NCBI GenBank assembly: GCA_001778235.1
Contig: MFGJ01000007.1
Location: forward strand, 193,476 to 257,475
Length of the DNA: 64,000 nt
DNA from: Candidatus Falkowbacteria bacterium RIFOXYC2_FULL_36_12
GTDB lineage: Bacteria; Patescibacteriota; Patescibacteriia; UBA11705
Direction of reading: 5' to 3'
The translations under genes were made by a program, and so were the position numbers. The notes under the pieces are model-generated. The model was given only the letters and a program-made list of their open reading frames with translations. It was not told where the DNA came from and made no database searches. Of this stretch, positions 10,624 through 59,000 are shown in pieces. Each line of letters begins with the position of its first letter. Position 1 is the first letter of the stretch.

Positions 10624-11169
10624 ATGCCAAAACAAGATACAAAAGTTGGTCGGCGCTGGTATGTAATCCATACTCAATCCGGTCATGAAGAATCAGTGGC
10701 AGAAAACTTGAAGCAAAGAATTGAGTCTATGGACATGGAAGATAAGATCTTCAGTGTGCTGATACCGACAGAGAAAAAAATCAGGATAAAAAATGGCAAG
10801 AGAAAAACCATTACTGAAAAAATCTTTCCTGGATATGTCTTTGTTGAAATGGTTGTAACCGATGATTCATGGTATGTTGTTCGCAACACACCAAATGTTA
10901 CTGGCTTTATTGGATCAGGCACGATCCCAACACCGATCTCTGAAGCTGAAATGAAAGAATTGCAGAAACGAATGGGTGTTGATGATCCAACAGTGTCTAT
11001 TGAGCTCACACCTGGAACTCCGGTAAAAATCACTGATGGTCCATTCAAAGACTATGAAGGACGAGTAGATGAAGTGGATGAAGAAAGAGGAAAAGTAAAA
11101 GTTGCGGTTTCAATGTTTGGACGAGAAACTCCAGTTGAACTTGATCCTTTGCAAGTAAAACAATTGTAA
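10624..11169 (+). CDS. nusG: Transcription termination/antitermination factor NusG
   Basis: RRWYVIHTQSGHE... NGN domain followed by a C-terminal KOW motif. Confidence 0.9.
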   Translation: MPKQDTKVGRRWYVIHTQSGHEESVAENLKQRIESMDMEDKIFSVLIPTEKKIRIKNGKRKTITEKIFPGYVFVEMVVTDDSWYVVRNTPNVTGFIGSGTIPTPISEAEMKELQKRMGVDDPTVSIELTPGTPVKITDGPFKDYEGRVDEVDEERGKVKVAVSMFGRETPVELDPLQVKQL

Positions 11170-11426
11170 TTACGAATATACTACTATTACAATTTTACGA
11201 ATATAAATTAAGTATTTGTTATAGTTGTAAATAGGAATAAATTTGTAATAAAAATTAGCAAGGAGAGGGGCTAAGAAATTTTCATTTTATTAATCAGTGA
11301 GCTTCTAAATATAATTACTAAACTACCTGCCTATCATAAAAGTTTTGGCAGGTGAGCAAAAAATTACAACCATTACAAAAGACAATCAATAGTAATATTG
11401 TAATTTCTAACAACAACAAGAAATAT

Positions 11427-11967: not shown

Positions 11968-12681
11968 TTGAATTCAATGTTAGTAAAAACTATGCCACAT
12001 AGATCAAAAAGATATCAAGTTCTTGCAAAAGAAATTGATAAAAACAAAGTTTATTCACTAGAAGAAACTCTTGCCCTTGTACGAAAAACTTCAAATATTA
12101 AATTTGATGCTTCGGTTGAAATCCATATTAGATTGGGAATTGACCCGAAGAAGGGAGAACAACAAGTACGATCAACAGTAGTTTTGCCTCATGGTATTGG
12201 AAAATCTAAAACTATTTGCGTCTTTGCTGAAGGCGACAAAGCCAAAGAAGCTGAAAAAGCTGGGGCGGACTTAGTTGGTGGTGAAGAATTAATTGAAAAA
12301 ATTAAAAAAACTGGTAAATGCGATTTTGAATTAGCACTTGCAACTCCAGACATGATGCCAAAGCTAGCAATTATTGCTAAAACACTTGGACCAAAGGGTC
12401 TGATGCCTTCACCAAAAAATGAAACTATTACTCCGAATATTGGGAAAGCGGTTGAAGAAATGAAAAAAGGTAAAATTGCTTTCAAAAATGATGACACAGC
12501 CAATATCCACCAGGTAATCGGAAAAGTCTCATTTGATGATGTTCAGCTAACAGAAAATTTTAAGACTTTTATGGAAGCACTTGAAAAATCAAAACCTGAA
12601 ACATCAAAAGGTACTTTTATAAAATCTGTTTCCATGACAACAACTATGGGACCTGGAATAAAAGTTGATTATCAGAAATAA
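11968..12681 (+). CDS. rplA: 50S ribosomal protein L1 (the true start may be the internal Met at 11977 or 11992)
   Basis: Shows the L1 family profile and follows rplK. Confidence 0.85.
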   Translation: MNSMLVKTMPHRSKRYQVLAKEIDKNKVYSLEETLALVRKTSNIKFDASVEIHIRLGIDPKKGEQQVRSTVVLPHGIGKSKTICVFAEGDKAKEAEKAGADLVGGEELIEKIKKTGKCDFELALATPDMMPKLAIIAKTLGPKGLMPSPKNETITPNIGKAVEEMKKGKIAFKNDDTANIHQVIGKVSFDDVQLTENFKTFMEALEKSKPETSKGTFIKSVSMTTTMGPGIKVDYQK

Positions 12682-12790
12682 GCGAGAAAAGAATAAAGCA
12701 AGTACAGAATAAAGCGAGTACAGTTATTATTGATGATTGAACTGTGAAGAAATAAATACAGAAATTTAGATATTAAAAAACAAGTTGAAT

Positions 12791-13135
12791 TTATTCAGCT
12801 TGTTTTTGTGATTCGAAATCAACAACCAGATTGGCACTCATAAATTTTGTGGAAAGTTCTATCTTGGCTCGCCAGCAATCCTCAATCCTGGCCCACTCAT
12901 CATCGGTAATTTTTAACCCCTTCACGAAATTCCAATTACACCTTCTATGATCATTCACCGCCCTTTCTTCAATATCTACTATCTGAAAATTATCATCTTC
13001 GCCAACTCTGAAAATCTCAACAACTAAATCAATATCAGTCTCCTGACTCGGGATATTCACTTTTTTTGACTTAACCGGTGAAAAGACTAAATAAATGGTA
13101 CCAGGAATGCGAGTTAACAAAAATGCTTGCTTCAT
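12791..13135 (-). CDS. Hypothetical protein (114 aa)
   Basis: ORF only; no family recognised. Confidence 0.35.
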   Translation of the reverse strand: MKQAFLLTRIPGTIYLVFSPVKSKKVNIPSQETDIDLVVEIFRVGEDDNFQIVDIEERAVNDHRRCNWNFVKGLKITDDEWARIEDCWRAKIELSTKFMSANLVVDFESQKQAE

Positions 13136-13366
13136 CTTTTCGCCCTTTCCTCGTCTGTTGTGAATGTGTTATCTACTTTTATCATATATTCTTATAAATG
13201 TCAATGATATTTTATCTTCAATTTAGGCAAAAATTTAATCCACAGGTAATTTTTTTGTCAGCCTGTTGTCTATCTGCTAAAATGGATTTACATTGATAGT
13301 CCATAGTTACTAGTCGGCAGTTTTATTGGCTCAAGACTATTAACTCTGGAATAATACCTAACTTCT

Positions 13367-14197
13367 ATGACACAGTTTGATCAGTTGTACAAAGATGCGA
13401 TTCTGCGAATAATGAATGAGGGGTTCGAAGAATTGAATGAGAGGACAGGTCATAAAACTAGGATTATTCCTGGTCTGACTTTTGAATTGGACCAAGGCTT
13501 TCCCCTATTAACCCTAAGAAAAATACCGATTAAAATATTTGTAGCGGAGCAAATCTGGTATATTATGGGGAGTAAAAATCCTGATGATTTTGTCAGTAAA
13601 TTCACAAAAATCTGGGAAGATTTCACTGAAGAAGATGGAACAATCCCAGCAGCCTATGGACACCGCTGGCGAAGTGCTTTTGGGAGAGATCAACTTGGAT
13701 TATTAATTCAACATTTACAAGATTCTCCAGGATCAAGACATGGGGTGGTAATTACCTGGGATCCGAGAGAAGATGGACTGGGCAATCCAGAAACAAAAAA
13801 AAATGTTCCCTGCCCTTATACCTGGACAGCAAATATTATAGGAAATAAATTACATATACATTCAATAGTCAGAAGTAATGATATGATGCTCGGTTGTCCT
13901 CACGATGTAGCTGGATTTGCTTTACTTCAAGCAATCTTGGCGGCAAAACTCCATGTTCAACCTGGTAAATTAACTCATTCAATCAGTAATGCTCATATTT
14001 ATGATATTCACTATGAGCAAGCTTGGGCATTAGTTGAAAGAATAAACAGCCATCCTCCAATTTACTTTGAAGCTCAAGATAACTACTTTGACCGAGCAGA
14101 AAAAGGTGACGAAAGCTTGGTTGATGAAATAGTAAGTAAGATAGAAAGACAATATAAACCGTCTGAACCGATTAAGGGAATGAAGATAGTGTTGTGA
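13367..14197 (+). CDS. thyA: Thymidylate-synthase-family (ThyA-like) enzyme; Asp at the position of the dUMP-specifying Asn177
   Basis: It aligns without gaps to the E. coli ThyA core (FPLLT, YGHRWR, the PC nucleophile at Cys149, RS, ALL). LGLPFNIAS is replaced here by LGCPHDVAG. Confidence 0.85.
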   Translation: MTQFDQLYKDAILRIMNEGFEELNERTGHKTRIIPGLTFELDQGFPLLTLRKIPIKIFVAEQIWYIMGSKNPDDFVSKFTKIWEDFTEEDGTIPAAYGHRWRSAFGRDQLGLLIQHLQDSPGSRHGVVITWDPREDGLGNPETKKNVPCPYTWTANIIGNKLHIHSIVRSNDMMLGCPHDVAGFALLQAILAAKLHVQPGKLTHSISNAHIYDIHYEQAWALVERINSHPPIYFEAQDNYFDRAEKGDESLVDEIVSKIERQYKPSEPIKGMKIVL

Positions 14198-14284
14198 TAC
14201 AAATATACGAAAACTACAAATATTACAAATGCATAAAATGGTCTAGGTATTTGTAATTTCTGTAATATTCGTAAATTCGTAATT
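14198..14284. repeat. R3 inverted-repeat element (solo, MITE-like): forward arm ..ATACGAAAACTACAAATATTACAAATGCAT, spacer, reverse arm GTATTTGTAATTTCTGTAATATTCGTAAATTCGTAAT
   Basis: Its arms are near-identical to the repeats flanking the GxxExxY gene at 34996-35036 and 35428-35470. It ends 1 nt before the start of the DHFR gene. Confidence 0.7.
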
Positions 14285-14803
14285 ATGAAAACAAGAATTG
14301 TTATGGTCATGTCGGCTGATGGCGTGATTGCCAAAAGTTCAAATCACAACCCAACCGAATGGACATCAAAAGAGGATCAGGAATTGTATAAAAAAATAAC
14401 CAAAGAGGCTGGGGTTATGATTTTTGGGCAAAGCACATATGATGCCATTGGAATGCCTTTGCCCGGCAGATTGAATATTGTTCTAACCAGAGAAAATCGT
14501 CAAGACATTCCAGGGACATTGGAGCATAAACAAGGAGACTTGAAACTGATTTTGGAAGATTTGGCTAAACGGGGTTTCAAACTAGTGATAATTGGTGGAG
14601 GAACTATTGTTAATTCAAGATTCCTTGAGGCTGGTTTGGTTGATGAACTCCAGCTGACTATTGAACCAAAACTTTTTGGGGCTGGCCTACGACTGTTCGA
14701 TCAAATTGATGTCAATATTGATCTCGAGCTGATTGAAGTCGTAAAATTGAATGATAATACATTGAACCTGATTTATAAAATAAAAAAGACAAGTAATTTA
14801 TAA
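14285..14803 (+). CDS. folA: Dihydrofolate reductase family protein (RibD-C/DHFR fold)
   Basis: VMSADGVIA...IFGQSTYDAIG...RLNIVLTRE...IIGGGTIVNS..VDELQLTIEPKLFGAG matches the DHFR/RibD_C profile, and the gene is adjacent to thyA. Confidence 0.7.
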   Translation: MKTRIVMVMSADGVIAKSSNHNPTEWTSKEDQELYKKITKEAGVMIFGQSTYDAIGMPLPGRLNIVLTRENRQDIPGTLEHKQGDLKLILEDLAKRGFKLVIIGGGTIVNSRFLEAGLVDELQLTIEPKLFGAGLRLFDQIDVNIDLELIEVVKLNDNTLNLIYKIKKTSNL

Positions 14804-14910
14804 TTTTTCTTTGTGAAAATAACTGGTCAAGACTTCATTTATTTTTTATTAACAACGATTAATATTATTTTATAAATTTACAAAACTTAATTATAATCAA
14901 AAAATAATCT

Positions 14911-15561
14911 ATGCCGATTTTAACCAAGAAACAAATTGAAGAAAAAATCAGTCGGGGGGAAATTGTTTTTGAACCAGCCTTAGATGCTTTTCAAACACAA
15001 CCAGCATCAGTTGACTTGAGGATTGGTTGGAGTTTTTATATCCCCTACACCTGGAAATACTGTGAAAAAGGTAGGATTGCTGTGGTTGCTGACCACATGG
15101 ATTACTCAACAACTCATGAAAATTTCCAGTTGATAAAACTAAAACCCGGACAATATTTTGAAATTTTACCAGGAGAGATGGTAATTGCCTCAACACTGGA
15201 AAAAATCAACTTAAACGCCGGCAATCTATCGGGTGTCATCCATCCAAGAAGCTCGGCTTCAAGGAGAGGTCTAGCAATTGAAAGCGGAGTAGTCAACCCA
15301 AATTTCACCGGATATTTAACAATACCAATGGTAAATCAAAGTCATCATGTGATAAAAATTTATCCAGGTGAGAGGTTGTGTCAAATTTTATTTCACGAAT
15401 TGACAGCTGAAATTAACAAAGAAGAAAGTAAAACTCATGGACTGTCAGAAGATAAATACCAAAGCTCAACACCATATAATATGGACAGCAAACTTGATCC
15501 ACAGGAAGAAATTGATTTTCTAAAATCAGGTAATATTGATGGACTGAAAAAAAAACTTTAA
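14911..15561 (+). CDS. dcd: dCTP deaminase / dUTPase-superfamily protein
   Basis: ASVDLRIG, RSSASRRGL and GVVNPNFTG are motifs of the Dcd family. Confidence 0.75.
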   Translation: MPILTKKQIEEKISRGEIVFEPALDAFQTQPASVDLRIGWSFYIPYTWKYCEKGRIAVVADHMDYSTTHENFQLIKLKPGQYFEILPGEMVIASTLEKINLNAGNLSGVIHPRSSASRRGLAIESGVVNPNFTGYLTIPMVNQSHHVIKIYPGERLCQILFHELTAEINKEESKTHGLSEDKYQSSTPYNMDSKLDPQEEIDFLKSGNIDGLKKKL

Positions 15562-15569
15562 ATCTTGAC

Positions 15570-16124
15570 TTGCCTAAACAGAAAGATGATTTACCACAAT
15601 ATCCGCACCTGCCAATTGATAGAAAATTTAATTTTGTTGAACTTTATGACCAATGGATGACAGAAGCGAGAAAAGCATCAGAGGATCGTGTGGTTTGTTC
15701 TTGGTGGCCGACTGGTGCTGTATTGGTCAAAGATAATAAAATCATTGGACGAGGCTCAAATGGTGGTAGATTTGTCCCACTTTGTCCAAGGTATTTGAAT
15801 AATTGTCCAACTGGTACTGGCTATGAATACTGCACAGCAGAATGCCAGCAAACCTCTCACGCAGAAGTTTCAGCCATTAATGATGCAATAGCTCTTGGCA
15901 ATAGCCCAGAAAACGCTGATTTGTATTTGTTTGGACATTGGTGGGCTTGCGAGAGTTGTTGGGAACATATTATAAAACATAAGGTAAAGAATGTTTTCTT
16001 GGTCAGAAATGCTCACAAAATTTTTACCAGAGAAAAAAGAGTTCAGCTAATGGAAGAAATAAAAAACCGTTTAGAAAAAAAAGAGCTTCTACGACCAATG
16101 GACATATATTGGGATGTGAAATAA
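15570..16124 (+). CDS. dCMP deaminase (cytidine/deoxycytidylate deaminase zinc motif HAE...CxxC)
   Basis: The motifs TSHAEVSAINDA...WACESC are present. Confidence 0.75.
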   Translation: MPKQKDDLPQYPHLPIDRKFNFVELYDQWMTEARKASEDRVVCSWWPTGAVLVKDNKIIGRGSNGGRFVPLCPRYLNNCPTGTGYEYCTAECQQTSHAEVSAINDAIALGNSPENADLYLFGHWWACESCWEHIIKHKVKNVFLVRNAHKIFTREKRVQLMEEIKNRLEKKELLRPMDIYWDVK

Positions 16125-16157
16125 TAAAATTAATACTTTTTTTGAATTTTATAAACT

Positions 16158-16709
16158 ATGTCAAAAATAATTTTTGGATTTGTTGGGGAAATTGCCAGTG
16201 GAAAAGGCACGGCTTGTGAATATCTAATAAATAATTATCAAGCAGGATATTATAGATTTTCAACAATAATAAGGGATATTATAAAAAGATTGTATATTGC
16301 TGAAGACCGTGAACATCTACAAAAAATGTCTTCTGTATTACGGGAAAATTTTGGACAGGATATTTTTGCCAAAGTAATGGCTGAAGATGTAAATAATGAT
16401 AAACATACAATAATCTGCGTTGATGGTATTCGGCGTCAAGATGATATTATATATCTAAAGAAAATACCTGGGTTTATTTTGGTTAATATTTTCGCTGATT
16501 TAGAAACCCGTTATCAAAGAATTGTAAAAAGAAGTGAAAATCAGGATGACAAAGCAAAAACCTTTGAACAGTTCAAAAAAGACCATGAGAATGAAAATGA
16601 AGCCTTGATTGAGGAAACGGGCAAACAAGCAAGTGAGAAAATTGACAACAATGGGACAGAAGCTGAATTGGTTGAACAGATTGAAAAAATGGTTGAAAAA
16701 TATAAATAA
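16158..16709 (+). CDS. P-loop deoxynucleoside-monophosphate kinase, T4 gp1 (dNMP kinase)-like
   Basis: The GEIASGKGT P-loop and the CVDGIRRQDD segment resemble the T4 gp1 motifs 'SGVKRSGKDT' and 'PDTRQDHE'. Confidence 0.5.
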   Translation: MSKIIFGFVGEIASGKGTACEYLINNYQAGYYRFSTIIRDIIKRLYIAEDREHLQKMSSVLRENFGQDIFAKVMAEDVNNDKHTIICVDGIRRQDDIIYLKKIPGFILVNIFADLETRYQRIVKRSENQDDKAKTFEQFKKDHENENEALIEETGKQASEKIDNNGTEAELVEQIEKMVEKYK

Positions 16710-16738
16710 AAAAAGGCTCCAACATTGTGAAGCACAAA

Positions 16739-16984
16739 TTAATTTTTCAGTTTTACAACTTCGGTCCGACCTCCACCACTGGTGCCAGTGGGATTGAAGG
16801 AATATTTCATGACATTGGTTGTCTGATCATAGTAAAGAGCCGTGAGTTGGTTTTTCTTCCCCGCAAAACCGATGATGATAAAGCGATTATAAGGCTTTTG
16901 AATGATAAGTACAACAGAAAAATCAATAATAGCGCCACTGGTCAAGTTAATGTGGACAAAATCACCTTTTTGCGGTAAAACCAT
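16739..16984 (-). CDS. Hypothetical small protein (81 aa)
   Basis: An ORF filling the gap between convergent genes; weak support. Confidence 0.3.
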   Translation of the reverse strand: MVLPQKGDFVHINLTSGAIIDFSVVLIIQKPYNRFIIIGFAGKKNQLTALYYDQTTNVMKYSFNPTGTSGGGRTEVVKLKN

Positions 16985-17044
16985 TGCAGAGCCTCCCTTG
17001 TGGTGATGGGAATATCAACCTATTTATAATCATTTTTAAATAAA

Positions 17045-17896
17045 ATGTCAACTGTAGAACAAATAAAGGAACTGCTGTATTCAGCCAAAAGTGATGTATT
17101 CATGAAATCTGAATTTGAATATTTATATCGGGAAACAATTGATTTTATTATCAATAAATACCAAGAATTCAGTAAAACGATTGAAGATACAACTGCTCTA
17201 GAAAACATGTTGCCATGCCTGGCTTTTGATAATTTCAAAATTGAAAAGAAAACATCCTCCGAGCAACAACTAGAAAATTCAGTGTCTGATATTATCAGAA
17301 ATGAAAAAAGTGAAATGGCCGAGCTCACTCTAATAAAATATGCAAAAGATGAGGAGAATTTCTTAACTAAACTGATTTTGTTTCAACAGTCAAGTTTATC
17401 ATTTAATCAGATTGAAGAAAAAATAAAGTTAATGACTCTGGAGCAGAAAGAAAAGTTGATTAATCTTTATTTTGACACAACAAAGGACAAAAATGTCTTT
17501 AATTTTTTCCATTATAATTTTCAGATGACATGTACTATCCCAATACTAGAAAAAATAAAACCAATCTTAGCCAACAAACTGCTGGTACAAAAACTGGAAA
17601 TCTGTAATGGATATTACACCCCGCCTAAAATCCTACATTCTGGTTACCATGGCGACTATATTTTGATCATGAAAAAAGCCATAGATGCTTACAAAAAAAT
17701 GCTCCCGACTTTATCCACACAAGCTTTTTACATTGTACCTCTTGCATTTATGCAAAAAATATTATTTACTGTAAAAGTAGTTGATTCATCTTTAATACAA
17801 TTGCCTTTCAAACAACAACTATGGCAAAAAATAAAAGAGGTCAACCCAACTATCTATGAACAAATAAATAAATTAATAACCATAGGGGAGGAATAA
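17045..17896 (+). CDS. Hypothetical protein (283 aa) embedded in the dNTP-metabolism cluster
   Basis: No recognisable motifs; it is not ThyX (no RHR...S motif). It is translationally coupled to the MazG-like gene (stop 17896, next start 17899). Confidence 0.5.
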   Translation: MSTVEQIKELLYSAKSDVFMKSEFEYLYRETIDFIINKYQEFSKTIEDTTALENMLPCLAFDNFKIEKKTSSEQQLENSVSDIIRNEKSEMAELTLIKYAKDEENFLTKLILFQQSSLSFNQIEEKIKLMTLEQKEKLINLYFDTTKDKNVFNFFHYNFQMTCTIPILEKIKPILANKLLVQKLEICNGYYTPPKILHSGYHGDYILIMKKAIDAYKKMLPTLSTQAFYIVPLAFMQKILFTVKVVDSSLIQLPFKQQLWQKIKEVNPTIYEQINKLITIGEE

Positions 17897-17898
17897 CT

Positions 17899-18210
17899 AT
17901 GATACATAACAAATTAGTCAGGGATTTGATCCCTCAAATCATTGAAGATGACGGAGATGAGGCGGTGACAAGAGTCTTGGAAGATGATGAATATTATCAA
18001 GCCTTAAAAGACAAATTACTTGAAGAGGTCGAGGAATACTTAGAATCAGACGACCACGAAGAATTAGCGGATGTCTTGGAAGTAATCCGAGCGCTGGTAG
18101 ACTATCATTCAATGACATATGAAGACTTGGAAAATACCCGAAAAATGAAATTACAAGAACGGGGGGGATTTAGTGAAAGGATATTCTTGTCAGAGGTAAT
18201 TGAAAATTAA
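17899..18210 (+). CDS. MazG-like / phosphoribosyl-ATP pyrophosphohydrolase-like NTP pyrophosphatase
   Basis: 103 aa all-alpha protein with the EEVEEY...ELADVLEV acidic metal-binding pattern of MazG/HisE-like house-cleaning NTPases. Confidence 0.6.
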   Translation: MIHNKLVRDLIPQIIEDDGDEAVTRVLEDDEYYQALKDKLLEEVEEYLESDDHEELADVLEVIRALVDYHSMTYEDLENTRKMKLQERGGFSERIFLSEVIEN

Positions 18211-18246
18211 ACAGGAAGGCGATTTTGTCGCCTTCTTTTATACAAT

Positions 18247-19491
18247 ATGAGTAATGGGAAATTTATTGTCTGTGAGGGAGGGGAAGGTTCGGGAAAAACA
18301 ACTCAAATAAAAATGCTCGAACAAAAATTGACTGAAAGAGGCTACAGTGTTTTGTTAACTCGCGAACCTGGAGGAACAAACTGCAGTATTGCTGAAGAAA
18401 TCCGCGCTATTTTGAAAAACCCAAACAATAAAAATATGACGGCCGAGACTGAATTATTTTTGTTTCTAGCTTCCCGAGCTCAACATGTAAAAGAAATAAT
18501 AAAAACCGCACTTGAACAAGGAAAAATTGTATTATGCGATCGATTTGAGGCATCAACTTTTGCTTATCAACATTTTGCACGAGGACTTTTTGATCTTGAA
18601 GAAGTAATGAAAATAAACTCTTTTGCCACTGGCGGTCTGATGCCTGATTTAACGGTATTACTTGACATTGAACCAGAATTTGGATTGAAACGGATATCAG
18701 ATAACACTAACCGAGGAAATCTCCAGGACGATAGATTTGATAGCGAGCAAATTGAATTTCACCAAAAAGTCAGAAATGGGTTTCTAGAATTGGCCCAAAA
18801 GCTAGCTAATTGGCAGGTGGTGCAGGCAACTGATTCGGTTGAAAATGTTCATATTAATGTTTGGCGCCAAGTAGAAAAAATATTACCTCAAAATAATCAA
18901 AGAATTAATCTACTGACTAATCAGCGCAGTACTGATCGAGGAAAATTGGAAGTTATTTGTGGCAGTATGTTTTCAGGCAAGACAGAAGAATTGCTTCGAC
19001 GAATGAAACGAGGGCAGATCGCGAATCTGAAACAAAAACTTTTTAAACCTGACAAAGATACTCGATATTCAGCCAATGAAATAAAAACCCATGATGGTCT
19101 TGGAATGACTGCAATAAATATTCCAGCACATCAACCAGCCATGATCTTCAACCTCATTGAGCCTGAAACAGAAGTAATTGGTATTGATGAAGTTCAATTT
19201 TTCTCTCCAGAAATAGTCCAAGTCTGTAATCAGCTGGCGGATCAAGGGATTCGGGTTATCGTAGCTGGACTTGATCTTGATTTTGAAGCTAACCCATTTG
19301 GTCCGATTGCAGGGCTGATGGCAACGGCAGAACATGTAAGTAAAGTCAGGGCAGTCTGCGAACAGTGTGGGGAGGATGCCAATAGGAGTTTCCGAATAAG
19401 TCATTCGCAAGATACTTTTCAGCTGGGAGAAAAAGACAATTACAAAGCCCTCTGCCGATCCTGTTATGTCAAAGCAATAAATAAAAAGTAG
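18247..19491 (+). CDS. tmk: Fusion protein: thymidylate kinase (aa 1 to about 215) plus thymidine kinase (aa about 231-414)
   Basis: The N-terminus has CEGGEGSGKTTQ...REPGG (Tmk). The C-terminus has GSMFSGKTEELLRR, VIGIDEVQFF and the zinc ribbon CEQCG...CRSC (Tdk). Confidence 0.8.
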   Translation: MSNGKFIVCEGGEGSGKTTQIKMLEQKLTERGYSVLLTREPGGTNCSIAEEIRAILKNPNNKNMTAETELFLFLASRAQHVKEIIKTALEQGKIVLCDRFEASTFAYQHFARGLFDLEEVMKINSFATGGLMPDLTVLLDIEPEFGLKRISDNTNRGNLQDDRFDSEQIEFHQKVRNGFLELAQKLANWQVVQATDSVENVHINVWRQVEKILPQNNQRINLLTNQRSTDRGKLEVICGSMFSGKTEELLRRMKRGQIANLKQKLFKPDKDTRYSANEIKTHDGLGMTAINIPAHQPAMIFNLIEPETEVIGIDEVQFFSPEIVQVCNQLADQGIRVIVAGLDLDFEANPFGPIAGLMATAEHVSKVRAVCEQCGEDANRSFRISHSQDTFQLGEKDNYKALCRSCYVKAINKK

Positions 19492-19641
19492 AATTATTTC
19501 TACTTTTTTGGACTCAATAAATAGTCTAGAATTTGAGTGGCAAACAGATGCTTTTTCTGAATTTTATACCTTTGCAAAAAATAATAAAAATGGTACGATT
19601 ATTCTTGTAAACTGACTTAAATTTAGTTATTTTTGGTATTT

Positions 19642-53021: not shown

Positions 53022-56000
53022 TTACGGTTTTATTAAGATTCGTCCAGCAAAGCGGGTCCAAGGCTCTGGGGCTGTTCTTGAACATTCACCTTCATAACAT
53101 CCATCGGTGACCCAGGTAGATTTCTGATGGCCACATGATCCATTGCACCAACCCCAGCTGTCTTTAACCTGAACCTGCGGAATAAATTGGCAGGCTTGTT
53201 CGGTGGCATTCCAGCAATTTGAGATGACGCTACCACTACAGACCCGGTCACCCTGTCCCTCGCAGGTGTATCGATGTTCAAATTTGAAAAATTCTTGAGG
53301 ACTGCAGGCATCGGTTGTATCACCAAAAACATCATATTGAGTACCAAGACATGAAGTGCCGACAGGACAATCTGTTGTTTCGCGACAAGCATAATCTGGA
53401 ATATATTTTCCAGCATTATCAATTTTACAACGCTGGAGCAATTCACCGGCTAATTGCTGGCAAACTGGTTTGTGATTTTTCAATTTACCTTCATCCAAGC
53501 CAACGACTGTGCTACCATCATTCCAATCAACCAGAACTGAAGTTATTGGCATTTGATTGGAGTTGGCCCAAGCATAGAATGTCATCTGGGCAGAATAATC
53601 CTCGCCTGAATAACGAATATCGCCTCGAGATTGAGTACCAATACTGATGGTATTAATATCAGCGGCTGAAGTTTCATTGCCAGTAATCGGATCAGAATTA
53701 CCGGTAAAGACAACTCCGGCAACAATTGGAGGCTGATGTGAATTGGTTAAGGCAAAATCACCAGCGACTGGCATAGAACCAGCAAGATTCACATATTTAT
53801 CATTTTGATATATCCATCGATTATAAACATTGGCAAATAAATTGTTGATGAAGACACTATAGCCTGATGACTTGGTAACATTGTCGCAATTGGCTGTTTC
53901 TCCACCTTCACAACTGATTGGCTTACCGGCTGTATGGGCATTGTTGCCTAAGCCAGCGAAAAATGGTGTACCACCTGGATTTTCAGCTAGATCAGTGCCA
54001 TCATCATTGGTTGAGTCAAATGGGACATAGACAGGATCACCTTCATCTGTACTAACAGCAGAACCATAGGCACTACCAAATGGGTTTAAGGCAGTAGTTG
54101 GAGACAAGCCGTATTCAAGAGATCTGGTAGTCGCGTCCCACAATTTATCATGGGTTGCTCCAGACTCTAGTACAAGGTTATCCCCAGTCTTTAAATATTT
54201 ATAGAAATTGTCAGTATAAGCTTTGTTACTACCAAGAGCATCTTCTTCTACAACCTGAATAACATCCTGACAATATTCACCTTTTAATAAATCAAGGGTA
54301 AAATCCTGCCAACCAATACTGTTGGAATCATCGCAGATAGAAGCCCAGACACCTTTGAACTGATCATTTTCATCAAACAGCACTCTAACACCGAAATAAT
54401 TATCCTCACCCCAACAATGACTGTTTATCTGCCGAGCACTTTGAGCTAATGTATTATAGTTACAATAACCAACTTGGCTCTGGTCTGACTGACAGTACCA
54501 AATAGTTTCTCCCTCAACTTGTTGGTTGGCATTATTGTTGCAAGGGAATTGAGCTGGGTTTAGGTCATAATCTGTAGCTGGATTACACTGAACATTGGAA
54601 CAGTAGTTACCATAATAACTGTCCTTAATACATTTTCCATTGCCACAATCATTATCTTCGGTACAGCCTTGTGATGACCAATTTACACCATGCAAGACAC
54701 CTGCTGGAATAGGCTTAAAAACATCTTCTGCATCACCAAGAACTTCATTGGTAATCAAATCTTTATTTTCTACTCCTCCATCCTTGACAAACATGAGATA
54801 TTTATCATCATCAAATTCACCAAGTTTCTTGCCACTGCCACCATATTGATAGAGGGTGTCACTCTCAAGGAATCGGCTGGAGACAAAATCTTTTTCAGAC
54901 CAAGTAATCTGCCAATAAGTCCATTGACGATATTTGTCTTGATCACGAGTGAAATTGTAAGTCGAGAGATTGCCTGTGACCAAAGTATTTGGAGCTGAAC
55001 CACTTGGATTAATAGACCGAGCTGATTTTTTGAAGAAATTGTAACCTTGAAAGTCTTGGCTGTGACTTTTTTCATACCAGGTTGTAGCTGATTCACCTTC
55101 GCACCAATCTTCGTCTTGACCTTCATTGCAAGCAAAAGAAAAGCCTATTAAATCTTGTTTATAAAGAGGTTCACCACTATAACCAGTGAAATATTCGCGA
55201 TAATCATTGCCACCTGAAGGGATATAATAACGATAATCATCAAAAATCCTGGCTCGATAGGAAATCGGATCTTCGTACGGTGTATCATCTGTTTCTAATC
55301 CGGCTGCACCGAGACAGTATAAACGACCACCATCATTTTCAAAAGCATTTGGATCATAACCAGCTTCATCATACTGGGCATATAGATCCTGAAGACCGGA
55401 CAATGAATCAACAGGATACCAGGACAAACAAGCGGTGTCGCCCTGCCCACTAAGTTTGAGACTGCCATCTCGTTCAAGACAATATCCCTGCATGCCAAGA
55501 TATTTTACCCGATCAATATCCTTCTTCATACACATACCGAGCTGTCCACTGTCACTGCAGTCATATGATTCGCACATTGTACTTCGATCAATAGCATTTC
55601 TGGTAATGTTGTCATCCTCTGTAATCAGACCAGCGCAAGCACATTGCCTATCTGGAATATCCTGACAAAAGCCGACTTTGTCAGTTTCAATATATTGGCT
55701 GATTGAATTTGGAAAATATTTGTCTATATATCCGCCACCAAAACTAACCTTGGTATAAGCACAACCGCAGGCAAAATTTTCATCGCCTTCGCAGGTCAGA
55801 ACATTTTCATAGGCTTGGGCAGTTTGATTGCCTAACTTTTTAACACTGGCATTGAATGGAGAGTCTGCCTGCGGATAAGCTCGGCATTCAGCAGAACTGG
55901 CGCTGATAATATCAGCGGTAGCAACTCCTTCAACGCAAACATCACCAAGACAGCGACGGCCAGCTCCGCAGGCGTCATCTGAAGTACATGTTTGACTAGT

Positions 56001-59000
56001 AAGATGAACCAGACGATAGTCTTTTGGTAGAGCATTGTCACGAGCATTTATATTGTAGGAATTATAAAATTGTAGTGGATATCTATTTGAAATAGAATAA
56101 CCACTGTAATCAAGCTGTCCCCATGAAACTCCCTGCGTTCGGCGGACTTGAGTATAATTGGTTGCATTTAATAATTGATTGGTTGTAAGGAGTGAATCTG
56201 ATGGACCCTCACTGACAAAATGACTACATTGACCAGTATTCTCTGCCTCACCAATAGCATCACAAAGGCCAAGTCCCTGACAGACGAATTTCGAAGTGTT
56301 GGTAACTGGATCAAAAACAGTTTGTCCGCTCTTGCAGTCATACCATTCTGCACATTCGCGATCACGGACAACTTTTATTATACGATTTGAATCCTGAAAA
56401 ATATTAGCTTCATTGGCAGCGTAACACAAGACAGACTCATAAGTACATTGATTAACTCCGACTGGGCCAGCACTGGCACTCGGGGTTGTCCCGAGCAGTG
56501 CGAAAACGCTATTTGTAATTGCAGTTCTTTCTACGGAATTAGTGTCTGGTTGGTTAAAAATAGCTCTGACCTCTGGGCAATAATTTGTGTGCAGAGAGCA
56601 ATCAATATTTAAATTTTCTAGTAGTAATTTCAAACCTTGGAGTGCCTGATCAGTGGAATTGGCAAGAGGAGAAACACCTCGACCACCATCAGCAGAACTG
56701 GCTTCATAGGTTGAAGCAGAATTAAACAAAAGCTGATTAAATCCTTGGGCATTTTTGACAGAAGTGTCATTGAATAATAGACAGCCATCTTTTTCACTAA
56801 CAGTAGAGCAAGACTGGATGTCTTCATTGTTTAAATAATAATAAGCTGAACCTTTGGTTGAGCCACCTTCAACATCAACTGGATCAAGAAAAGCAGTACA
56901 TGAATCATATTTACTCTTGCATTGACCAACCCAGCCATCATAGGTGGCAGTACTTGAATGCAATAAATGACCCGTGCCATCAGCGTAATAATCAAAAGTT
57001 CCAGACGGACAAGAATCTTCAGTGCCTGTGACGAACCAACCTTCATTGCCGTCAGAACCTACCTTGTATTCACAAGTGCGTTCACCCGGCTCCTTGAAAT
57101 AATAAGTGTTGTTGTCAGAAGTAGTAAATTCATCACAGCGATTATCTCTGCCGAGGCATAAGTATTTATCAAGATTATCAAAATCTAATTTGAAAAAGTT
57201 AGTAGCCCAATTATCAGACTCTATTTGATTGTTCTGATCATAATTTGGGACGCCGAGCATGGTACAACCAATACCAAATACTTTACACCTAACATCATCA
57301 GATAGGACTAAGTACATCAAATTGTCTTGATCGGTTGTAAAGGCTCCATTGTCATTATCATAAGATTGACTAAATGGGTTAGTCGAATTTTGGGTATCAA
57401 TAACTGCTTGACAGCCAACTGCTGACTGACGGCAAATATTGCGAAAACCTCGAAGTGTCTGACTGCCGGCAACACTACTTTCAAATTCACGACAACCAAG
57501 CTGGGCTTGTGGCAAATATTGTTTGGACAAGGTCTGATCGCAAGCTGTCGGAGTTGACCAACTATTAGTAATCAAATAATGTGTATCGCTAAGTCTCTTG
57601 ACTTCAATACTATCAAAATAAATCGTGCCACTATTTGATTGGATATTTATTTCATTAACCGCTTCGGTTGGAACAAATATGGCTGTATCATAATGTAAAA
57701 ATTGTGTCTGATCAGCCGGAGTTGACTGGATTTCCACCCTTGACTCAAGGCTTGAGCTACCAAGATTAATATCAGCTCGGGCAGTTGAACCAGGGCTCTC
57801 TGCCCAGAAGGAAACAATATATGATTCACCTGGAATAAGGGAGTTTGATAATCTACGACCGGAGGTTTGGCCAGAAGTGAGCTTCAATGATTTTCCGCCA
57901 TTGATTGAAGACCGTTGACTGATTTCTCCTCCAGTCCAGATTGTACTGGCATCAAAAGTGTCATTTAACAATTGGTCAACATCATTGGCTGTATTACCGC
58001 GGTATTCACGACAGCCAGCATTTGATTTATCACATGACTTGCTAAAATCAGGGTTAGCCCAGAAAACACACTCATTGTCAGCTCGCCATTCACCACCTCG
58101 ACTAGTGCATTGGATCTCTGCATCATATTTAAGTGTTCGGCGGTATGGATGACAATTTTGGCTACATAAAACTAAATTATCTAAAATATAATATGAAACA
58201 TTGCCATTTTTATCATAAAGTTCACGGCATTCAGGAAAATTTATTGGGTCAAAAGTTGACGGACTACATTCACGAGTTATAGGCGACTTCTGGACGACTT
58301 TTGGTACAGAATTATTCATCTCAAACTGATGTGCCTGGAGTTGATAACCAGAAACATCGGTTCCGACCCAAGTATAATAAGTGCCACAACTTGTATCGGT
58401 TTCAGGATTGTCTGATTTTTTGCAAAGTCTAAGATCAGAATAATATTCAGTTCCTTCACCACCTGCATCTAAATCATCTAAATTGGTAAATTCTTCACAA
58501 CTGACTTGATTAGCTGAACAGCTTTCAGCAGTTGATGGCATGAAATATAATGGGAACTGGGTTGAAACAAAATTTGTAGAGGCCTGGGAATAAGTCGCAT
58601 ACCCAACACACTGTGAAGGACAGAGATCTTCTGGTGAAGCAACAGCGGTAACGCTGGTGCCACCATCGGTTGGATTGAAGAGCTGACAGCCAACTTCTTC
58701 AGCGGCACAAAGCTCGGCAAAGTCAGAACATTTTTCTGAATTATTACTTGTTTTATCAAGAATATCTGAAACATTAACTGGGGTATACCAAGTTGTTTCA
58801 CCTTGTCTTATCCCACGACTAAAGGCTGGATCAGTATATAAAGCTGAATCATAACAGCCATAATAATCAGGAGCAATTTTGATAAAATCCAAACCAATAG
58901 TCCCATAATCACTGTAATCATAAACTTCAAATGGACTGACTGCTTCTGAAATTTGGACTTCATCAATGACTGAACTCTCAATGCCTGAAAAACGCATTCC

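Follow-up and report, generated by a model that had tools for sequence, protein, structure and literature searches.

A 64,000-nucleotide stretch of DNA from Candidatus Falkowbacteria RIFOXYC2_FULL_36_12, a member of the Candidate Phyla Radiation (CPR, or Patescibacteria), is analyzed here; it is called the window, and all coordinates refer to it. The window contains an open reading frame (ORF) for a protein of the thymidylate synthase (TS) fold in which Asp occupies the pyrimidine-specificity position, Asn177 in Escherichia coli ThyA. The ORF is predicted to encode a C5-methyltransferase acting on deoxycytidine monophosphate (dCMP). We consider it fairly probable that the enzyme is folate-dependent and that its product is deaminated to thymidylate, i.e., that a pathway of the type found in Xanthomonas phage Xp12 has become fixed in a cellular lineage.

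An aspartate at the pyrimidine-specificity position

The ORF matches PF00303 (Thymidylat_synt) over residues 7–238 (expectation value (E) 2.4e-48; 165 bits against a cut-off of 24.3), and its product is 100% identical to a protein of Ca. Falkowbacteria RIFOXYD2_FULL_35_9 (P0001). In HMMER alignments to solved ThyA structures, 'RSNDMMLGCPHDVAGFALL' lies opposite 'RSADIFLGVPFNIASYALL' without a gap, D180 being opposite the canonical Asn; the active site as a whole, 'VPCP...RSNDMMLGCPHDVAGFALL' opposite 'PPCH...RSADIFLGVPFNIASYALL', is likewise gap-free. A MAFFT alignment with E. coli ThyA equates D180 with N177 and C149 with C146. The Asp180 codon follows CAC, which encodes His179. The Asp of T4 gp42 ('FRND', the D179 of the literature) falls in the same alignment column. 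The first-pass annotation of this DNA, made from the sequence alone, had proposed an Asp at the E. coli N177 position, a gap-free active-site alignment, and equivalence with D179 of T4 dCMP hydroxymethylase. All three proposals hold: the HMMER matches, the ThyA alignment, and the GAT codon agree on the Asp, no shift places an Asn in the pocket, and the gp42 column supports the equivalence.

Residues of the window protein are given by their own numbers (e.g., Asp180), and family positions by those of E. coli ThyA (e.g., 177). The residues of the ThyA sequence used for numbering agree with PMC13326640 at all 12 positions listed there (W80, Y94, A142, L143, C146, H147, Q165, S167, C168, D169, G173, and N177).

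Residue counts were made over 201 sequences of the clade, 56–100% identical to the window protein. Asp replaces Asn177 in 201/201, which is compatible neither with chance nor with sequencing error. Over 80 species-level genomes, the Asp180 codon is GAT in 56 and GAC in 24, and this synonymous variation indicates purifying selection on the amino acid, not on the nucleotide. Other pocket positions differ from E. coli ThyA with comparable regularity. Leu143 is Asn, Trp83 is Phe, and Arg127 is His or Gln in every sequence, while His147 is Pro in 200 and Asp205 is Asn in 199. Two of these changes lie in the motif K145-N146-V147-P148-C149-P150, where Asn146 answers to Leu143 and Pro150 to His147. 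The K, N, and C of the motif are each present in 201/201 relatives, and the P in 200/201.

As judged from the alignments, the TS catalytic machinery is intact: the nucleophile Cys149, Glu61, Tyr97, the phosphate-binding Arg, and His210/Tyr212 for the 3′-OH. Residues C149, E61, Y97, R26, R124, R169, S170, D172, H210, and Y212 are each kept in 188–201 of the 201 relatives and answer to E. coli C146, Glu58, Tyr94, Arg21/126/166, Ser167, Asp169, His207, and Tyr209, as befits a member of the TS superfamily; Asp172 (E. coli 169) is Asp in all 201. In the same alignments, the deoxyribose-specificity residues Ser170 and Arg124 are kept, and Asp180 occupies the base-recognition position. We considered whether the gene might be a pseudogene or its product inactive; the conserved catalytic residues, together with the synonymous-only variation at key codons, rule this out.

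The window protein ends in ...IKGMKIVL. Of the 201 relatives, 172 terminate in L, V, or I, the remainder being mostly truncated alignments, and the C-terminus of T4 gp42 is different (...KDYVGKYA). The AlphaFold model (predicted local distance difference test score, pLDDT, 87) superposes over its full length on the E. coli and Lactobacillus casei TSs with a template modeling (TM) score of ~0.8. Its 50 best structural matches in the PDB are all thymidylate synthases, with no hydroxymethylase among them.

Positions 147 and 177 also form a coupled signature among cluster representatives. Searched exhaustively with HMMER, a set of 1.84 billion such representatives yielded 12,756 matches; the best 150 were analyzed, and 138 of these have the catalytic Cys and positions 147 and 177 aligned. 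The 138 divide into 121 with a residue other than His at 147 and Asp at 177, 14 with His and Asn, and 3 mixed; His147 is present in 14 of the 15 Asn177-type representatives. Position 143 is associated in the same manner, Asn143 pairing with Asp177 in 110 and Leu143 with Asn177 in 14, and no acidic residue is found there among the 123 Asp177-type representatives. As a side observation, two proteins (P0247 and P0249) have Asp177 in an otherwise canonical pocket, with Trp83 and Arg127 in both and His147 in P0247; to judge by these residues, nature has produced counterparts of the laboratory mutant N177D in them.

Several published rules relate these positions to specificity. The Asn177→Asp change turns TS preference from dUMP (deoxyuridine monophosphate) to dCMP (PMC8670742, PMC13326640), and no other positions tell cytosine-modified phage contigs from unmodified ones as well as 177 and 147 do (PMC8670742). 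At position 143, methyl products go with a bulky hydrophobic residue and hydroxymethyl products with an acidic one, the latter in T4 gp42 and MilA; Asp169→Asn is the mark of 5-hydroxy-dCMP synthases (PMC13326640). Ser167 and Arg126′ accompany deoxyribose substrates, and MilA has Ala and Lys instead (PMC5175136). The window protein has Asp177, Pro147, Asn143, Asp169, Ser167, Arg126, and a hydrophobic C-terminus; thus, every published rule applied predicts dCMP as the substrate and methyl as the transferred group.

Class by class, the pocket departs from canonical ThyA in Asp180 for Asn177, Pro150 for His147, and Asn146 for Leu143. It agrees with the Xp12 type, D180 and P150 being the same in Xp12, PaMx74, and Mallos, and N146 and D172 the same in Xp12. 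The Asp of gp42 at position 143 is Asn146 here, and the Asn169 of the 5-hydroxy-dCMP synthases (RB69 gp48/DLP3 gp80 type) is Asp172. The ribose-preferring MilA/BcmA enzymes have Ala at Ser167 and Lys at Arg126′, where the window protein has Ser170 and Arg124.

Relatives in cells and phages

A word-indexed search gave 2176 homologues at E ≤ 1e-5; among the best 120 of these (66–100% identity), all names given are Patescibacteria. A genome scan gave 80 loci of species representatives, labeled Falkow-, Kuenen-, Magasanik-, Uhr-, Moran-, Nomura-, Portnoy-, and Harrisonbacteria and Paceibacteria. Many loci have other labels. Loci L002, L005–L007, L012, L013, L033, L060, and others, from binchicken metagenome-assembled genomes (MAGs), are labeled 'uncultured Gammaproteobacteria' or 'Candidatus Saccharibacteria', with TSs 57–81% identical and CPR-type synteny, and two TS loci are labeled Ktedonobacterales and Chloroflexota. 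Such labels reflect either placeholder or wrong taxonomy or occasional transfer outside Patescibacteria.

Among phage proteins, a single family that includes Xp12 and Pseudomonas phage PaMx74 supplies the best matches (33–38% identity). The TSs of Mallos, Xp12, and PaMx74 are 35–37% identical to the window protein (E 1e-45 to 1e-48), E. coli ThyA is 27% identical (E 1e-29), and T4 gp42, the weakest of the three references, is 25% identical (E 1e-12). Of 12 first-shell residues, i.e., those within 6 Å of the pyrimidine C5 (list from PMC13326640), the window protein shares 10 with Xp12 TS, 8 with T4 gp42, and 6 with E. coli ThyA. The window protein and Xp12 have in common a segment, WDPxEDGLG...KNVPCP, that the alignment places as an insertion against E. 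coli ThyA.

In a neighbor-joining tree, the CPR clade and the Xp12 group fall in an Asp-type supergroup apart from the Asn-type enzymes (178 of 200 bootstraps), inside which the CPR clade is a branch of its own (187 of 200). The nearest non-CPR relatives, at 42–44% identity, are on contigs with phage-type genes, among them a terminase on contig L086 and HNH endonucleases. Contig L086 also carries homologues of two neighbors of the CPR gene described below, the deaminase and a Dcd-like protein that lacks the catalytic Glu. The two nearest Asn-type representatives are phage-borne too, and have no adjacent deaminase.

Asp177-type TSs are also found in natural fusions: one has an N-terminal dCMP deaminase (P0135, 433 residues) and another a PRA-PH/MazG-like pyrophosphohydrolase (P0180, 424 residues). 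Further Asp177-type fusions have an HNH endonuclease (P0148) or a 190-residue domain without an assigned family (P0123). Among the fusions examined, dihydrofolate reductase (DHFR) is fused only to an Asn-type TS (P0241).

Some Asp177-type enzymes have been studied experimentally. Expression of Xp12 TS and of five of seven other Asp177 homologues in E. coli gave 5-methyldeoxycytidine (5mdC), and in phage metaviromes a deaminase is co-localized with TS in 70% of cytosine-modified versus 6% of unmodified contigs (bioRxiv 10.1101/2024.12.05.627091). The first-pass annotation had suggested that the window enzyme may methylate dCMP; this suggestion is supported computationally by the Asp177/Pro147 pairing, the closeness to Xp12, and the pocket residues. 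Transfer of methyl rather than hydroxymethyl, also suggested there, is favored by Asn143, Asp169, the TS-like C-terminus, and the DHFR gene next door.

Gene neighborhood and a candidate route to thymidylate

The TS gene heads a series of nucleotide-metabolism genes (Table 1), with secE, nusG, rplK, and rplA upstream. Neighbors were counted in the 80 related loci over the 10 kb on either side of the TS gene. The dCMP deaminase is the most conserved (71/80), remaining adjacent despite changes in gene order and orientation; DHFR is found in 54, the Dcd-like gene in 38, and the kinase in 19. Ribosomal protein L11 (rplK) is near the TS gene in 34, NusG in 32, and L1 (rplA) in 20. Since the secE-nusG-rplK-rplA linkage recurs in 20–34 of the 80 loci, in different lineages, we take the module to be chromosomal and vertically maintained; a prophage or genomic-island origin for the cluster is ruled out on the same grounds.

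Table 1. Features of the TS-like gene and of the genes downstream of it.
Feature	Coordinates	Strand	Basis or remarks
TS-fold enzyme, Asp177-type (cytosine-type) active site	13367..14197	+	ATG start, 276 aa
Motif K145-N146-V147-P148-C149-P150, with catalytic Cys149	13799..13816	+	Alignment; Xp12 TS has the identical 'KNVPCP'
Asp180 codon GAT, equivalent to E. coli ThyA Asn177 (pyrimidine-specificity residue)	13904..13906	+	Codon reading, alignments
C-terminal tail KGMKIVL, hydrophobic last residue, as in reductive TS (E. coli ...IKAPVAI)	14174..14194	+	
Dihydrofolate reductase, T. maritima type, 172 aa	14285..14803	+	PF01872, PF00186
dCTP-deaminase/dUTPase-fold (Dcd-like) protein	14911..15561	+	TIGR02274, 105 bits vs cut-off 92.8
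dCMP-deaminase-family zinc enzyme (H97-A-E99, C127-x-x-C130), Cys-rich insert	15570..16124	+	PF00383, MafB19-deam
Small P-loop nucleotide kinase, related to phage deoxynucleoside monophosphate (dNMP) kinases	16158..16709	+	AAA_17
Thymidylate kinase (Tmk)-thymidine kinase (TK) fusion, 414 aa	18247..19491	+	PF02223, residues 10-202 (3e-50); PF00265, residues 232-407 (1e-54)

Two of these neighbors, a DHFR and a dCMP deaminase, had been named in the first-pass annotation, and both identifications stand. The DHFR matches the T. maritima enzyme 1cz3 at full length (residues 5–169, E 1.2e-27) and is 27% identical to the DHFR of Xp12 (E 4e-7). CPR folA genes work as DHFRs in E. coli, and a 2025 paper reads them as a folate 'public good' for hosts auxotrophic for tetrahydrofolate (PMC11974145). 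The tight linkage of folA to a TS-like gene with dihydrofolate as a predicted product, in 54 of the 80 loci, suggests a simpler, cell-autonomous reason for its retention.

The deaminase, which belongs to the dCMP-deaminase family, matches the S. mutans dCMP deaminase 2hvv (E 6e-9), and its catalytic motifs (HAE, CxxC) are intact and conserved in 72 sequences. It is 28% identical (E 4e-11) to the deaminase that lies beside the Asp-type TS of phage contig L086, and the two have the Cys-rich insert in common. Its start codon is TTG; the insert, C..R...C....G..Y..C, precedes HAE, and a conserved 'GHxWxCxxCW' replaces the usual 'PCxxC'. The L086 deaminase (10831-11292) also has the insert and the 'GHxWxCxxCW' feature.

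By its NCBIfam match, TIGR02274, the Dcd-like gene would be called a dCTP deaminase. Its product lacks the catalytic Glu of the deaminases: Pro139 (codon 15325-15327) takes its place, 'TLE' becoming 'TIP', and in alignments to 4xjc and 2qxx 'LTIPMVN' lies opposite 'ITLELxN'. Every CPR neighbor whose alignment covers the motif has Pro at this position, as does the homologue on phage contig L086. The window copy also has Asn129 (codon 15295-15297) in place of the Asp of 'IDPG'; most copies retain the dUTPase-like 'IDxxYxG' Asp. The missing Glu makes a pyrophosphatase more likely than a deaminase, and the protein is probably a dUTP and/or dCTP pyrophosphatase. It could supply dCMP from dCTP, or be the cell's dUTPase.

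The small kinase matches phrog_139, 'deoxynucleoside monophosphate kinase' (1e-16), and SSO1041/AdkA-like proteins (5e-9). The Tmk-TK fusion marks the cluster as a thymidine-nucleotide module. Between these two genes are ORFs 17045-17896 (+) and 17899-18210 (+), each conserved in 1 of the 80 loci (closest relative L017). The first, of 283 residues, has no family match. The second encodes an acidic helical protein of 103 residues that matches phrog_535 (unknown function) and has weak local BLASTP similarity to the N-terminus of the Xp12 pyrophosphohydrolase; a MazG/PRA-PH identity was tried for it and found no support, nothing significant coming from Pfam, NCBIfam, or the PDB. A promoter and terminator scan of 12600-19600 gave nothing above the shuffled expectation. 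Elsewhere in the window, a very large ORF (53022-61481, −) encodes 2819 residues with an N-terminal hydrophobic segment.

We propose the following pathway. The TS-like enzyme would methylate dCMP with 5,10-methylene-tetrahydrofolate, giving 5-methyl-dCMP and dihydrofolate. Asp180 would hydrogen-bond the cytosine N3 and 4-amino group, in the manner of T4 dCMP hydroxymethylase and of the TS mutants N229D/N177D. Given a pocket like that of the Xp12 methylase and a DHFR encoded alongside, the group transferred would be methyl, not hydroxymethyl. This DHFR, next to the TS gene, would regenerate tetrahydrofolate from dihydrofolate, and the adjacent deaminase may turn the 5-methyl-dC nucleotide, as mono- or triphosphate, into a thymidine nucleotide. 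Phosphorylation of the products would fall to the Tmk-TK fusion and the dNMP kinase. The Dcd-like protein would most likely act as a pyrophosphatase, converting dCTP to dCMP and/or dUTP to dUMP.

A deaminase-based, non-canonical route to dTMP (deoxythymidine monophosphate), as the first-pass annotation had envisaged, has a direct precedent in Xp12-like phages; its substrate and step order in CPR cells are what we infer here. The synthesis of dT from 5-methyl-dC nucleotides has been proposed for such phages, after Kuo et al. 1982, and one TS-linked deaminase converts 5mdCTP to dTTP. The phage deaminase mSCD-B5 acts on the triphosphate, and 5-methylcytosine (5mC) selectivity is reported to be polyphyletic among deaminases (bioRxiv 10.1101/2024.12.05.627091). 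The account of the Xp12 dT route by Kuo et al. 1982 is taken here as it is cited in PMC8543423. A chromosomal module present in many Patescibacteria lineages, the nearest relatives of which are phage-borne, looks like an Xp12-type pathway fixed in cells.

Alternative readings and comparison with known systems

The gene might instead encode a dUMP-methylating TS (EC 2.1.1.45), with the Asp compensated by other pocket changes and with dUMP supplied by the deaminase and the dUTPase-fold protein. We think this rather unlikely, although a number of observations speak for it and weigh against a dCMP methylase. The protein has a complete TS fold, all catalytic residues, and a TS-like C-terminus, and it passes the ThyA equivalog TIGR03284, if marginally (109.9 against a cut-off of 108.35). 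Databases call the gene thyA, and papers on CPR metabolism treat it as ordinary thyA. The usual enzymes of dUMP supply are present in the cluster together with DHFR and Tmk. The dCMP deaminase, dUTPase-fold protein, DHFR, and Tmk fit the canonical order dCMP/dUTP→dUMP→dTMP equally well, so context alone leaves the step order unfixed. The CPR deaminase resembles ordinary ComEB/S. mutans-type dCMP deaminases and has no BLASTP match at E < 1 to the deaminases of Xp12, PaMx74, or Mallos. Identity of the TS-like protein to the validated Xp12 enzyme is only ~35%. Engineered N→D mutants of TS retain some dUMP activity, and the presence of a thymidine kinase means that thymidine salvage exists.

The specificity residues and the tree both speak against a canonical TS. 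The choice between dUMP and dCMP is set mainly by Asn177, and Asp switches the preference (PMC8670742, PMC13326640). The Asp is invariant in the clade and pairs with the loss of His147, and the clade groups with enzymes that make 5mdC, not with the Asn-type enzymes. The seven other matching ThyA models (six NF-series models and TIGR03283) score far under their cut-offs, e.g., 136 versus 327 bits. We rate the canonical alternative low because it must ignore both the invariant, co-varying specificity residues and the tree.

A second alternative accepts the dCMP methylase but changes the fate of its product: 5-methyl-dCMP would mainly be phosphorylated into the cell's own DNA as 5-methylcytosine, with the deaminase skimming off dT, as in Xp12. 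The parts list is that of the 5mC phages (Asp-type TS, deaminase, DHFR, phrog_139-type dNMP kinase, and possible dCTP pyrophosphatase), and the triphosphate-level action of the mSCD-B5 deaminase would suit such a scheme. The kinase and the Dcd-like gene are patchy, however, as their counts above attest, and Asn replaces the motif Asp in the window Dcd-like copy. Moreover, literature searches gave no report of globally 5mC-substituted CPR DNA despite the many genomes, and the Tmk and thymidine kinase at the end of the cluster point to dT nucleotides as the product. We regard this fate as quite improbable. We give slightly less credence still to the broadest form of the idea, in which a domesticated phage module makes a 5-methyl-dC pool in members of ABY1 and Paceibacteria (Parcubacteria), and 5-methyl-dCTP partly or fully replaces chromosomal cytosine. 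In a milder version, these bacteria may have no dUMP-dependent TS and may make all dT de novo via 5-methyl-dC.

The least credible alternative, a dCMP hydroxymethylase with T4 gp42-like chemistry and 5-hydroxymethyl-dCMP as product, can appeal to the Asp177 common to T4 gp42 and MilA and to the 8 of 12 first-shell residues matching gp42, including Asn at 168, but position 143 is Asn rather than Asp or Glu and is never acidic in the 123 Asp177-type representatives, the adjacent DHFR would be superfluous, gp42 is the reference with the lowest similarity, and the best 50 structural matches are all TSs.

We return to the dCMP methylase and its consequences. Asp177-type TSs, the dCMP methylase of Xp12, and a 5-methyl-dC route to dT are known already, in phages only. 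What would be new here is that a bacterial radiation has fixed this phage pathway as what looks like a housekeeping module. Searches across 8 million full texts gave no paper linking Patescibacteria, thymidylate synthase, and dCMP or N177. To our knowledge, dUMP-based thymidylate synthesis, through ThyA or ThyX, is regarded as common to all cells. If the enzyme is a dCMP methylase, a large part of the CPR would make dTMP by a phage-derived pathway, and CPR 'thyA' annotations and the metabolic reconstructions that depend on them would name the wrong substrate. Why such minimal genomes keep folA, a puzzle so far, would then be explained by the recycling of dihydrofolate for the TS-like enzyme. 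The cells would carry a pool of 5-methyl-dC nucleotides, which bears on DNA modification, restriction, and phage–host interplay; were 5-methyl-dCTP to enter chromosomal DNA, pool-level base substitution would have its first cellular example here. Biotechnology, where 5mC-selective deaminases are now used in methylome sequencing, would gain dCMP methylases and deaminases associated with them from a large natural family.

The window enzyme may be set beside several known systems. With canonical ThyA (E. coli, L. casei), it shares the fold, the catalytic Cys, Glu, and Tyr, the phosphate-binding Arg, the folate-contact Asp169, the C-terminal tail, and the coupling to DHFR. The clade differs from ThyA in the changes counted above at positions 177, 147, 143, 83, 127, and 205, and also in Gln165→Val/Ile. 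The engineered dCMP methylases L. casei N229D and E. coli N177D have an Asp on a reductive TS scaffold, as here, and 1njc, the L. casei N229D structure containing dCMP, appears in both the sequence and the structural matches to the window protein. These are single-residue laboratory mutants, whereas the window clade, a natural lineage, shows several pocket changes that co-vary. T4 gp42 and MilA, which act on cytosine substrates, likewise have the TS fold, the catalytic Cys, and Asp177. They differ in the acidic residue at 143 and in transferring hydroxymethyl without folate oxidation, and MilA has Ala/Lys for Ser170/Arg124.

The phage 5mC-selective deaminases, mSCD-B5 and its relatives, are dCMP_cyt_deam_1/MafB19-like proteins encoded in cis with an Asp177 TS, for which a 5-methyl-dC to dT reaction is proposed, and the same layout is found here. 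The CPR deaminase, the candidate for the 5-methyl-dC role, resembles the S. mutans-type and L086 deaminases and is unlike those of Xp12 or PaMx74.

The nearest counterpart is the system of Xp12, PaMx74, and Mallos. Like the window protein, Xp12 TS (deoxycytidylate methyltransferase; QNN97214.1) and its PaMx74 and Mallos relatives have Asp177, Pro147, and Asn143 (KNVPCP). Xp12 TS also has the WDPxEDGLG insert and a TS-like hydrophobic C-terminus, and it lies in the same Asp-type supergroup. These phages encode a pyrophosphohydrolase, TS, dCMP deaminase, and DHFR in a row, and the last three have counterparts in the window. At 126/127, 176, and 205, Xp12 TS has Arg-Arg, Tyr, and His, and the CPR clade Arg-His/Gln, His, and Asn. 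The pyrophosphohydrolase of Xp12 is a MazG/HAD protein; the CPR cluster has a Dcd-fold protein instead. Finally, the Xp12 module is viral and serves the total replacement of C by 5mC; the CPR module is chromosomal, lies beside ribosomal-protein genes, and is conserved across a bacterial radiation.

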